Shown piece after piece: positions 52,887 through 58,816 of a DNA stretch of 64,000 bases (position 1 is the first letter of the stretch; every line of letters starts with the position of its first letter). Where the stretch lies: NCBI GenBank assembly GCA_046045965.1, contig JBJOKS010000026.1, positions 20,141 to 84,140 of the forward strand. The letters are read 5' to 3'. This DNA is from Cyanobacteriota bacterium (GTDB lineage Bacteria; Cyanobacteriota; Cyanobacteriia; Cyanobacteriales; Nostocaceae). The notes below the pieces were generated by a model, which worked only from the letters and a program-made list of their open reading frames with translations, did no database searches and was not told the origin of the DNA. The position numbers and the translations under genes are program-made.

Positions 52887-54257
52887 ATGAGTAATATTTT
52901 CGGTGATTTTGATTTATCGTCTCTGAAACACAACTCTGATTTTAAAGAAGATAGTGTCAGAGAAGTAATTATTCTACCTATTTTAAAAGCACTTGGTTAT
53001 ACAGAAATAAATATAGTTCGCAGTAAAACATTACAACATCCTTTTTTGAAAATTGGTAGTAAAAAACGTCCTATCAATCTTATTCCTGATTATGTCTTAA
53101 AGGTAGAAAATAATTTTGCTTGGGTACTGGATGCAAAAGCACCAAATGAAAATATCAAATCAGGTGATCATATAGAACAAGTTTATAGTTATGCTACCCA
53201 TCCAGAAATTAGGAGTAATTATTTTGCTCTTTGTAATGGTGTGGAGTTTTCTATATTTAAAACTACTGCAACTAATATACCTGTTTTATTTTTCTCCCTT
53301 GATGAAATTGAGTATCATTGGGAAAAATTAACTCAATATCTATCACCTAACAGTTTTCAATCTGGCAAAAACTTTAGTTATGAAACTACCATAGCTACAG
53401 CTAAACCCAAAGGTGACTTTGATTATAATAATCGTCCTTTATTAGCAGAAATTCCAGTTAAAAAACAATCTGCTAAAAGACATTTTGGTGTTCATGGATA
53501 TTTTACTAAACAAGCTTGGAATGTAGTTGCTGAATATATTAAAAATTTTAGTCAACCTGGAGATTTAATTCTTGATCCTTTTGGTGGTAGTGGAGTTACA
53601 GCAATTGAAGCTTTAATGAATAACAGAAAAGCCATTAGTACAGATATTAACCCTATGGCTGTTTTTATTGTTAATTCTTTAATTGCTCCTGTAGATTTTG
53701 ACGATTTTTCAGCAGCTTTTGAAAGAGTAAAAACAGAATATCAAAAGAAAGAACCAACCACAGAAGCAGAAATTCAAAAAGCATTAACCAAATATCCCTA
53801 TCCTCAAGGTTTACAATTACCTAAAGGTTCAGATGTAGAAACAGTAGAACAGTTATTTAGTGATAAACAATTAGCACAACTATGTTTATTAAAGTCAATT
53901 ATTAAAAAAGAGAAAGATAAAAATATTAGAGATTCATTAATGTTAATGTTTTCTGGATTACTTAATAAAATAAACTTAACTTATCATGCTTCAGAAGGTA
54001 GAAGTGAGGGAAGGGGAAATAGTAGCGTTTTTGCATATTACCGATATAGAATAGCAAAAGAACCGGCATCGATTGAAATTTTACCTTATTTGCAATCAAG
54101 ATTTAAAAAAGTTAGTTCTGCTACCGCTTTTGAAAAACGGAACTACACCAGAAAATCAAACTATTTTGAGTGTATTAGAAGATATTGGAGAAGGGATAGG
54201 GGAAGACAGTTGGATACTAAAAAGAGAAGGTCAACTTTCGTTATTGTAGTAAATTAA
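52887..54257 (+). pseudogene. Restriction endonuclease (HsdR_N-like) + DNA methyltransferase fusion, disrupted
   Basis: KEDSVRE..IPDYVL..LDAKAP..QVYSYA..LCNG nuclease; motif I DPFGGSG; no DPPY/NPPY motif; probable native C-terminus in another frame at 54121-54249. Confidence 0.8.
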
Positions 54258-56278: not shown

Positions 56279-56529
56279 ATCTTTACTGTGGGGACTAGAA
56301 AGTGACCAATGACCAATGACCAATGACCAAAAAATTAAGCAGTGCTGAAGCCAGATATAGCTATCAACACTGCTCAATACCTCTGTTATTGTTGGTTGCT
56401 TGCACAAAAAACAGTCCACGAGGGCTGGTGATTTCAGATCAATTTAGTAGCCTAGCCATCAGAGAACAATGAAAAATTAAAACTCAGCATACTTTGTGAT
56501 TTTTAATTTTTAGCTCTTGCCCTAGAGGA

Positions 56530-57018
56530 TCAGTTGGTAGTAGCAGCTAACATCTGTTTGAGTTGTTCTAACTTATCAGCCCAACGTGGATCTGGACGAA
56601 TTGCGTCTGAATCAACTGTGGTAGTTGTTTCACGAGATCCACCACCACCACCACGGCGAGACTTTTTAGCGCCTTTTTCACGGCGTTCTTTGTTGGTATT
56701 GGGCGCAGGAGTGCTAGTAGCTTGACTAGCAGCTTTGGGTGCTTGATCTTCACCTTCGTCACCTTTGGTACGAGGTAATGCCTTTTCTAGTTTGATGGCG
56801 GTGTCTTTGAACATTTGACCATTATATTTTTCAATAATTTGGTCTGCTTGTTCGTCATTGTTCACCGTCAGAAAACCGAAACCACGACATTTGCCTGTTT
56901 TTCGGTCTTTAATCAGTTTGGTGGTGACAGCATCGCCTTCAGCTGCAAATACAGCTTGCAATTCTTGACGATCTATTTCTTCTTTGGGCAAATTACCTAT
57001 GTATAGGCGAACAGACAT
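56530..57018 (-). CDS. rbpG: RRM RNA-binding protein, long C-terminal class (RbpG/Rbp3-like)
   Basis: RNP2 LYIGNL, RNP1 RGFGFL, C-terminal PDPRWA..LEQLK. Confidence 0.85.
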   Translation of the reverse strand: MSVRLYIGNLPKEEIDRQELQAVFAAEGDAVTTKLIKDRKTGKCRGFGFLTVNNDEQADQIIEKYNGQMFKDTAIKLEKALPRTKGDEGEDQAPKAASQATSTPAPNTNKERREKGAKKSRRGGGGGSRETTTTVDSDAIRPDPRWADKLEQLKQMLAATTN

Positions 57019-57147
57019 GAACTATACCTCCAGAGTTGACATGAACATGAGAAAACAAAAGCAATCACTTGGCTTTGGCTTATAAATAGATGCTATTAAC
57101 AAAAATCGCCATAAACCAATTTTTTTAATCCAAGCTATCCACCTATA

Positions 57148-57270
57148 GTTTCAAACTACATGAACATATATTTATATCATGCTGTTTGTTCGCAGGGAAT
57201 AACCCCGACAGGGCAAACTACAACGCCCTATATCCCTTGGCTTAAAGCTGTCAGGAATACTTTTATTAAA
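57148..57270 (-). ncRNA. Putative omegaRNA scaffold / right end of the TnpB element
   Basis: Minus-strand stems AGGGA..UCCCU, AUAGGGC/GCCCUGU and AAACAGCAUGA/UCAUGUAGUUU followed by GAAAC; overlaps the vestigial tnpB 3' end; boundaries approximate. Confidence 0.5.
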
Positions 57271-58189
57271 AAATTTACACTACCATTAACATCTGCCATT
57301 TAGATGTCTTTTGATGATTCGGTAGTAAAGATTTTAATTTAGTTATTTGTTGATTGTAATAACGATTAATTGACTTGATAATCTGCCCTTTGACAAGAAC
57401 TGGCACAAATCCAGGCTTGTTAGAAGTTAAAGTTGCTAGGTTATCTATGCCTAAATCAATCGCTGCTATTGAATCTTGCTCTAATCCATGATCTAACTCC
57501 TCTTTTTCATAAACAACTTCTACCACATAATGGTCAATCTTGGGTACAATCCTGACTTGTTGCAGATGGGAATCATCTAAAGAAGTAGGAATATAAATAT
57601 GGGTTTGTGGCAGATGAATCAATCCTGCTTTCATGATCGGTTTATTCACTGCTTGAGCCGTATAGACTAATAAATGTCTACCCTTTTCTTTGTGTTTATA
57701 CTTGGGTAATTTGGGTCTGCCTAAAAATTTATTTTGATCAAAAAAGGTAGAAGGAAAACTGCTCTCTACTTCTGGCTGTAAACAAATAGATGAAGGTTTG
57801 AAAACATCCGCGTAACTCCCGTTCATTGTCTCAAAATCAGGATGGGTAAAATTACCTTCTAATTTACTAATTCTGTCTTCTGTGTCCTGCCTCTTGCCTT
57901 CTTCAATTTCTTTATATGCCTTAATTTCTGCCAAAAATCTTAACCAGTTGTGATGTAAATCTAATAATACTTGTTTTGCTACTTTAGTGGGTAAATATTT
58001 ATAAGTTTCTGAAGATTTTAGCTGTTTAGCTAGTAAATTGTAATCTATATATTTATTCTTAAAAATAAAACTTTGGCGAATATGGAAGTTAGCATAATTG
58101 TAGAGGTTTTTAGCGGACAAACACAAAGAGTCAATCTCGTGATAATGGGGATGATTGCTTTGAATAATATGCCGCTCAACTAATTGCAT
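57177..58189 (-). mobile_element. tnpB: TnpB (IS200/IS605-superfamily) gene with internal deletion; 304-aa ORF at 57275-58189
   Basis: MQLVERHII..KNLYNYAN..RQ, RPKLPKYK, QVRIVP..VEVVYE, RuvC-I IDLGIDNLA; out-of-frame ADVNGS..GVVV.PV tail; no tnpA. Confidence 0.88.
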
Positions 58190-58215
58190 GATGTTGTTAA
58201 AAAATATGCTTATAT

Positions 58216-58244
58216 ATACTAACTTGGGACTATAACGCAGTCAA
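58216..58244 (-). promoter_or_regulatory. Putative sigma70-type promoter of tnpB
   Basis: TTGACT-N17-TAGTAT on the minus strand, 26 nt upstream of the ATG. Confidence 0.5.
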
Positions 58245-58816
58245 GACCTTCAATACTAATTTTTGTAGCAATAATTCCTGTGCTACGAAATTTATGGGTA
58301 TGAATAATCATGTTTGTCTATAGATTGGGAGAATTTTTCCCATACAGTTGTTTGTTGGGATGATGCTTATTTAAGACTAAATTTCCAGTACGCCCAGCTA
58401 ATACCATCTTAATTCTCAGAATTATCAATTTAATAGCCCACCGTCCACCACAGTAAATGAATTCTTCCTAGCTTTGAGCCGCCGAATAAAATACCATCTC
58501 TTAACATTATCACGGTATTTTCTGCGTAGCCAGTTCAGCACCTACATTTTTGCCGATAGTATTATTGCATCGTAGCATACAATACATTTTCTGCACAAGG
58601 GATTTTTTGGAAACAAAAACCAGCCTTTGGCTGGTCGATTTGCTGCTGTGTTGGGAGGATTAAAGGAGATGAACTAGTAGCAGCGGCCAGACTACTAACC
58701 AAGTTGGGAGACCCAGTTAGGTCATTTGCTATTGATTTCATGAATAAATGTAACATTCTTGGATAGAGTTGGCAACTTGTGTTTGCATTTATAGGGTTCA
58801 GTCTGTAATGAAAGTT

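Follow-up and report, generated by a model that had tools for sequence, protein, structure and literature searches.

An IS607-type tnpB remnant in the rbpG promoter region of Nostocaceae keeps its frame open while the protein drifts

The window, that is, the whole 64,000-nt stretch of a Nostocaceae genome analysed here (G000, 92% complete), holds in front of rbpG the remnant of an IS607-type tnpB element. The remnant goes back to a single old insertion, has one deletion in common with copies in a sister genus, carries a changed left core, lies beside a decayed motif of the host, and has kept its frame open while its protein drifted neutrally. Our preferred reading, to which we give about an even chance, is that the remnant became fixed in the rbpG promoter region and now supplies the gene with a promoter and a translated leader, translation and not the protein being selected. 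An earlier sequence-only reading had left two options, an RNA-guided regulator or guide donor linked to rbpG, or a decaying IS that shapes rbpG transcription, and it is the second that receives good support, the insertion lying at the ancestral promoter. The features of the locus are as follows, in window coordinates.

56530..57018, minus strand: rbpG, encoding an RRM protein of 162 aa with a match to RRM_1; gene order as for all4377 in PCC 7120
57019..57125, minus strand: conserved rbpG 5' leader
57126..57145, minus strand: host sequence in the position of a guide, from around the ancestral start site of rbpG; varies among carriers and has no target in the searches described below
57146..57296, minus strand: out-of-frame tnpB tail with omegaRNA-scaffold-like stems and the right end (GAAAC plus core TA)
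57296..57297, minus strand: junction of a 394-nt deletion, with frameshift; common to G137, G257, L160 and the named record L161
57275..58189, minus strand: truncated tnpB frame with REC, WED, RuvC-I and bridge helix, then 7 out-of-frame residues ending MLMVV
57740..57907, minus strand: 168-nt in-frame insertion with a degenerate heptamer repeat at its start; low model confidence
58190..58339, minus strand: element left end (core TA changed to GA) and 5' region
58216..58244, minus strand: predicted tnpB promoter TTGACT-17-TAGTAT, a candidate for the present-day rbpG promoter
58265..58286, minus strand: palindrome GTAGC..GCTAC, which is not an element end; all six in-place copies retain it in part and mobile copies lack it
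58340..58346, minus strand: left half of the insertion site and family target motif, reading TGTATGG here and TGTATTG in the ancestral state
58358..58368, minus strand: AAGCATCATCC, the decayed form of an upstream motif of the ancestral rbpG promoter that reads AAGCTTGATCC in empty alleles
58618..58636, minus strand: terminator-like stem-loop after the upstream htpX-like gene

The TnpB-like open frame (58189-57275, 304 aa) matched PF01385 over the cut-off in a profile search and reached 75 bits against NF040570, under the cut-off of 100. Alignment against C76, an intact paralogue from G000, and against congeners revealed two lesions. The deletion, with 3-nt microhomology at its junction 57297/57296, removed 394 nt relative to the congeners, including RuvC-II and the region before RuvC-III, and put ADVNGS of RuvC-III out of frame, so that deletion and frameshift together inactivated RuvC in the window allele; RuvC-I is still present, its IDLG starting at 57460. 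The in-frame insertion (about 57907-57740) makes up 56 of the 304 codons and is absent from all aligned relatives, and the environmental strains X6 and X7 also carry it. As to its source, 151 genomes gave only short matches to the heptamer repeat, a protein search found only the insertion itself, and a six-frame genome search found nothing. The sequence-only reading had correctly described the 304 open codons with the N-terminal part and IDLG, the out-of-frame deletion into ADVNGS near 57296 and a premature TAG in the out-of-frame tail (57230-57228), and had overlooked the insertion. A structure model of the window allele gave the TnpB REC/WED fold at a pLDDT of 85, with ISDra2 TnpB as best match and low confidence in the insertion; this confidence reflects the deep family alignment, and an alignment of 14 sequences gave a pLDDT of 38.

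Homologues of 46-52% identity adjoin IS607 serine recombinases, the serine-recombinase tnpA profile NF033518 being matched over its cut-off beside the homologues in L036, L037 and L041, and the element is therefore assigned to the IS607 type; tnpB had been recognised earlier, the IS607 type and its TA core had not. As had been stated before, no tnpA accompanies it: none of the IS607 kind scored over the cut-off at the locus or elsewhere in the 92%-complete G000, and one occurs somewhere in the genome in four of the five other carriers. The right ends of 23 close copies (about 18 sites) read ..AC then TAT (GAAC-TA-T), the left ends of mobile copies read GTATTG-TA-AAACTT (four, plus a fifth found later), and the empty site reads GTATTG-TA-TAGG. 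Since TA is common to the target and to the left and right junctions, we take it as the core dinucleotide. The element then spans 58339-57146 (minus strand) and a guide would begin at 57145, two bases later than in the previously proposed guide at 57128-57147; GTAGCA..TGCTAC (58286-58265), formerly taken for a left hairpin, is an internal palindrome. In five carriers the left core now reads GA, GA, AA, CC and CC, and G002 has lost it by deletion. In another IS607 element, the IStron, the shared core is GG and core mismatches abolish excision (PMC10690162); because the left core is mismatched here, this element is probably locked in and no longer excisable. The matching cores and intact TnpB of a mobile copy are replaced in the window by a GA left core and a deleted nuclease. 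Most other copies of the family in G000 survive only as 3' fragments.

Several further observations concern the same family or the same stretch of DNA. A short non-autonomous element with both family ends lies immediately upstream of the start codon of a hydrolase-like gene at G000:C31:41570-41836 and L070 (in G000 and G001) and is possibly a second promoter-region insertion. Small dispersed repeats of 23-98 nt have inserted into the 3' tail of tnpB at matching positions in the in-place copy of G001 (L051) and in L077, L078, L073, L075 and L076. In another part of the window (52887-54257), a 456-aa frame combines a restriction-type N-terminal part and a DNA methyltransferase domain with an odd C-terminus, and is possibly frameshifted or truncated.

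The element occupies the same site in 6 of 52 rbpG loci (the 30 best of one protein search plus the 30 best of 242 matches, eight being shared; two of the 52 have short flanks), namely in all four genomes of the window's genus (G000-G003) and two of a sister genus (G137, G257). The linkage of tnpB to rbpG noted before is thus real and old, and strain-specific neutral decay does not describe an element shared by two genera. The in-place tnpB frames of G001-G003 are full-length; G137, G257 and the metagenome record L160 have the same deletion junction as the window, lack the 168-nt insertion, and contain open frames of 248 aa ending in MLMVV. Among 389 genomes of the family the junction was found in three; it also occurs in L161, from Sphaerospermopsis kisseleviana, which may duplicate another entry and was not counted apart. 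At least four further 90% protein clusters have the MLMVV tail, their named members being Sphaerospermopsis, and in a representative search P0001 and P0003 fell into separate 50% clusters. Environmental contigs of X4 hold an allele identical to the window, and X6 and X7 are diverged strains with both lesions. In prfC and htpX trees G000 is sister to G137+G257 (support 100 and 78), a grouping which fits one insertion followed by one deletion; trees built from rbpG or from the downstream gene branch differently, and the tnpB tree alone leaves a single clade of truncated alleles undecided (AU p 0.22). G212 (L150) has an empty site; its place among the carriers in the rbpG tree, against a position outside them for prfC and htpX, points to local recombination at rbpG.

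We take rbpG to be the orthologue of all4377 from its RRM_1 match and from the gene order prfC, all4378, all4377, which matches the PCC 7120 table; the label prfC was assigned in the window from the sequence. Loss of rbpG causes a clear thylakoid phenotype and segregates slowly (PMC11500504). In Nostoc PCC 7120, all4377 is monocistronic and has one listed start site, at -126 relative to the ATG; 322 nt separate this site from the end of the upstream unit (PMC10287535). The distance from the element to the rbpG ATG is 129 nt, the figure of about 110 nt given earlier holding only if 20 nt of guide are counted, and with the PCC 7120 start at -126 the ancestral rbpG promoter has therefore been split. 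The insertion divides TATTG/T, a hexamer whose last base lies 127-135 nt upstream of the ATG in 86 of 90 empty alleles; we infer it to be the ancestral -10 box by position, the loci compared including no named PCC 7120 record, and a 126-nt leader would place the start just 2-4 nt after it in most empty alleles. The left half of the insertion site is likely the -10 box of the old rbpG promoter. Because the insertion separates all upstream sequence from the start site, the split holds whether or not the hexamer is the -10 box.

The ancestral promoter motif upstream of the element has decayed. The columns of AAGCTTGATCC are 76-98% conserved across the 90 empty alleles, and the motif is lost in all six carriers, being altered in five and deleted in G002. 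The empty-site motif TGTATTGTA or AGTATTGTA is present in 40 of 41 non-carrier loci of the family fetched by protein search; another 120 loci fetched by the motif were left out of this frequency as self-selected. Further upstream, read-through into rbpG is probably blocked by the stem-loop that follows the htpX-like gene. A second copy of the target motif, TGTATTGTAT, lies at 58586-58577 and is kept in carriers; the genome contains 30 GTATTGTAT sites.

Inside the element, the promoter proposed earlier at 58216-58244 is a scan match at chance level (9 found, 9.1 expected), and its boxes are conserved: TTGACT-17-TA(G/A)TAT is kept in four of four congeners and similar boxes occur in mobile copies, with altered boxes in G137 and G257. 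No same-strand terminator came up within the element in the scan. Contigs assembled from two RNA runs are identical to the window over 56400-57492 (X5) and 56839-58094 (X3) and span rbpG, the right end and the deletion junction; we do not count them as transcription because the libraries may hold DNA, and depth per assembled contig cannot rank regions.

Selection on the frame was estimated by our own counting method over 241 codons with bootstrap, leaving out rows L081 and L082 because extraction had failed for one and gone wrong for the other. When truncated alleles from different species were compared, dN/dS was 1.03-1.23 (intervals 0.6-2.3). The full-length alleles at this site gave 0.44-0.51, intact copies that are mobile 0.23-0.37, and four host genes 0.03-0.29; the window allele against full-length G001 gave 0.41. 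The differences between truncated alleles are spread evenly over codon positions, and the purifying selection on the protein for which a check had been suggested is not seen among them. Of 71 residues conserved in 104 family proteins, the sister lineage has lost 23-29, the window allele 5, and the full-length in-place alleles 1, 2 and 6. The catalytic triad is intact only in G003, and the nuclease was lost in three separate ways at this site: E to K with D to N in G001, E to V in G002, and the deletion in G000. The sister lineage has also changed the RuvC-I D to N.

In spite of this drift, the frame of the truncated alleles is kept open. In neutral simulations from extant tips, about 2, 6-8 and 7-9 stops were expected at the three tips, and all three remained open in 0 of 3000 runs under each of six settings, in 0 of 4000 under the fitted model and in 8-12 of 4000 with branches halved; the window allele alone was open in 8-16% of neutral runs, which is not significant. 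The sole indel within the frame among the three alleles is the one of 168 nt, and the flanking non-coding parts contain indels of 1 nt and 33 nt. For the diverged strain X7 the comparison lists 27 differences, of which 9 are synonymous, 18 missense and none a stop, at a depth of 2-8, with 57452-57744 uncovered; an X7 contig at 87% identity has a 1-base gain at 57476 and a loss at 57479, lies below the threshold and may be another copy of the family. Gene conversion from intact paralogues was rejected as a cause of the open frame, the truncated alleles being farther from the paralogues than the full-length in-place copies are. Between G137 and G257 (L096, L097), 24% of the left-end and promoter sequence and 19% of the first 300 coding bases differ, with 0-4% beside them; this tract suggests either recombination or diversifying selection, and P0003 looks like a mosaic of the G137 and G257 sequences.

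Under the reading we prefer, the insertion would have separated the ancestral -10 region from the start site, and rbpG would be read from the element's promoter as one presumptive RNA of about 1.7 kb. With excision presumably prevented by the mismatched core, the nuclease would have become useless, or harmful if TnpB cuts its own mRNA, and could for that reason have been lost three times. TnpB is able to generate its guide by cleaving the mRNA that encodes it (PMC10278001), and a tnpB mRNA that is at the same time the rbpG mRNA would give a reason for nuclease loss. Our guess is that ribosomes travelling along the 750-900-nt frame shield the shared RNA from decay, in which case stops and frameshifts would be purged and missense changes would be free. 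The stop codon lies 256 nt from the rbpG ATG, and an untranslated stretch of this length is tolerated. Rho-dependent polarity was considered and discarded: classical polarity cannot be the reason for the open frame because no Rho scored over the cut-off in G000 and no terminator was found inside the element.

The truncated protein might instead be selected for a new and loose role, such as binding the omegaRNA-like stems in the rbpG leader and stabilising or tuning the mRNA in cis, which we consider unlikely. It would explain a frame open against neutral expectation, the MLMVV tail of at least four further protein clusters, the nearly unchanged bridge-helix stretch (13 of 423 nt differ) and tail (0 of 183) between G137 and G257, and the predicted REC/WED fold of the window allele, and a dN/dS near 1 can average positive and negative selection. 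Nevertheless, the sister lineage has lost invariant residues about as often as variable ones (27 of 71 versus 32 of 64), 56 aa were inserted here and a four-fold 11-nt repeat lies in the terminal stem of G137 and G257, and the confidence of the fold model comes from the family alignment.

It is rather improbable that rbpG is read from a new right-end promoter or a surviving upstream one and that the frame is open for an unrelated reason. The right end does contain the TAnnnT hexamers TATGTT and TAGTTT (57166-57152), TATGTT lies within the unit repeated four times in G137 and G257, and a second conserved promoter-like motif, CGTGATAATGT (about 58515-58505), remains upstream in carriers; the scan, however, lists no promoter at the right end, PCC 7120 has a single listed start site, and the open frame is left unexplained. 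There is also a small chance that the dead TnpB, made from the rbpG transcript, clamps the omegaRNA scaffold in the leader and acts as a cap or autoregulatory switch for a thylakoid mRNA-targeting protein. If so, a transposon nuclease would have been domesticated for control at the RNA level, and its fast evolution would follow from DNA opening being no longer needed.

A plain neutral pseudogene, open by luck or through the way relatives were found, would agree with a dN/dS of about 1, with changes even over codon positions, with decayed ends and with the lack of a target in the genomes and viral contigs searched. We regard it as decidedly improbable, since G137 and G257 were found through rbpG and not through an open frame, all three junction carriers among the 389 genomes are open, the simulated probability is below 1 in 3000, and IS607 tnpA copies in G257 do carry stops.

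The 3' RNA of the element folds better than shuffled sequences (z -2.4; 2 of 200), and five family stems pair in 95% of cells. The earlier statement that the omegaRNA stems still pair stands as far as folding goes; covariation in the family alignment was not above shuffles (41 of 500), and an Rfam scan returned one chance match and no omegaRNA-type family. The right-end terminal stem of G137, G257 and L160 contains an 11-nt unit, GTATGTTCATG, repeated four times, with a TAnnnT hexamer within (L096:1300-1360). In the 20 nt equivalent to a guide, G000 and G137/G257 disagree at 5 of the 19 positions compared. Following the suggestion to search the genome and phages for this guide, we found no motif-flanked target above chance: the best matches in the 92%-complete G000 were 7-nt seeds (5 found, about 3 expected), and viral contigs held none with the family flanking motif, which is predicted to be TTGTA. 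The three carrier genomes contained no exact target, and their near matches (29, 27 and 29) were close to the control (21, 21 and 19). The only full target is the empty allele of other species.

A repressor of the TldR type, in which dead TnpB and its RNA would bind a promoter beside the flanking motif and block transcription, could point to the dead RuvC and truncated C-terminus seen in described TldRs (10.1101/2023.11.30.569447), to the stable association with a host gene, to stems that can still pair and to the D to N change of the sister lineage, but is very improbable because dN/dS is about 1, the sister lineage has lost conserved residues, the guide varies between carriers and the searches of carrier genomes and viral contigs yielded no target; the same results speak against the RNA-guided regulator or guide donor of the sequence-only reading.

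The main text of the two TldR papers does not contain "cyanobacter". We found no paper on this locus in the literature on rbpG/all4377, TldR and cyanobacterial TnpB domestication, and the published TldR list of 506 dead TnpBs could include the clade. The locus may represent a route of TnpB retention other than RNA-guided repression, in which landing in the promoter of an important gene is irreversible, the nuclease is lost several ways, and retention of the element may depend solely on its promoter and on its translation. Since the clade holds empty-site, intact, point-dead and truncated stages, the steps before or beside TldR domestication can be tested in culturable strains. For genome mining the locus is also a warning: conserved synteny, an open frame and an RNA that folds are not enough to call a dead TnpB a TldR.

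Among known systems, IS607 elements such as the C. botulinum IStron resemble the remnant in having homologues beside tnpA and a two-base core at the target and both junctions; here the core is TA and the target GTATTGTAT, and this copy, unlike the IStron, lacks tnpA, is mismatched at its left core and encodes an inactive nuclease. With the TldRs, of which fliC-, csrA- and oppF-associated clades have been described, it has in common the origin from TnpB, a RuvC that is inactivated and truncated, a stable place beside a host gene and an adjacent putative RNA scaffold. In contrast to them it is cyanobacterial, sits inside the host gene's own promoter, shows no sign of constraint on the fold, and has no conserved guide and no target in the sequences searched: a protein conserved after nuclease loss does not agree with a dN/dS of 1.03-1.23, nor a guide with a motif-flanked target with the results for the 92%-complete genome and the viral contigs. 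An IS upstream of a gene can supply or reshape its promoter; in this case the insertion is fixed across two genera, the native promoter is apparently removed, and a drifting frame is kept open. In leader and upstream open frames it can be translation and not the product that matters, the frame being conserved and the amino acids not; the present frame differs in its length of about 250-300 codons and its origin from a transposon nuclease, and its effect on rbpG is presumed. By analogy, the locus would work like an IS promoter capture combined with a translated leader.
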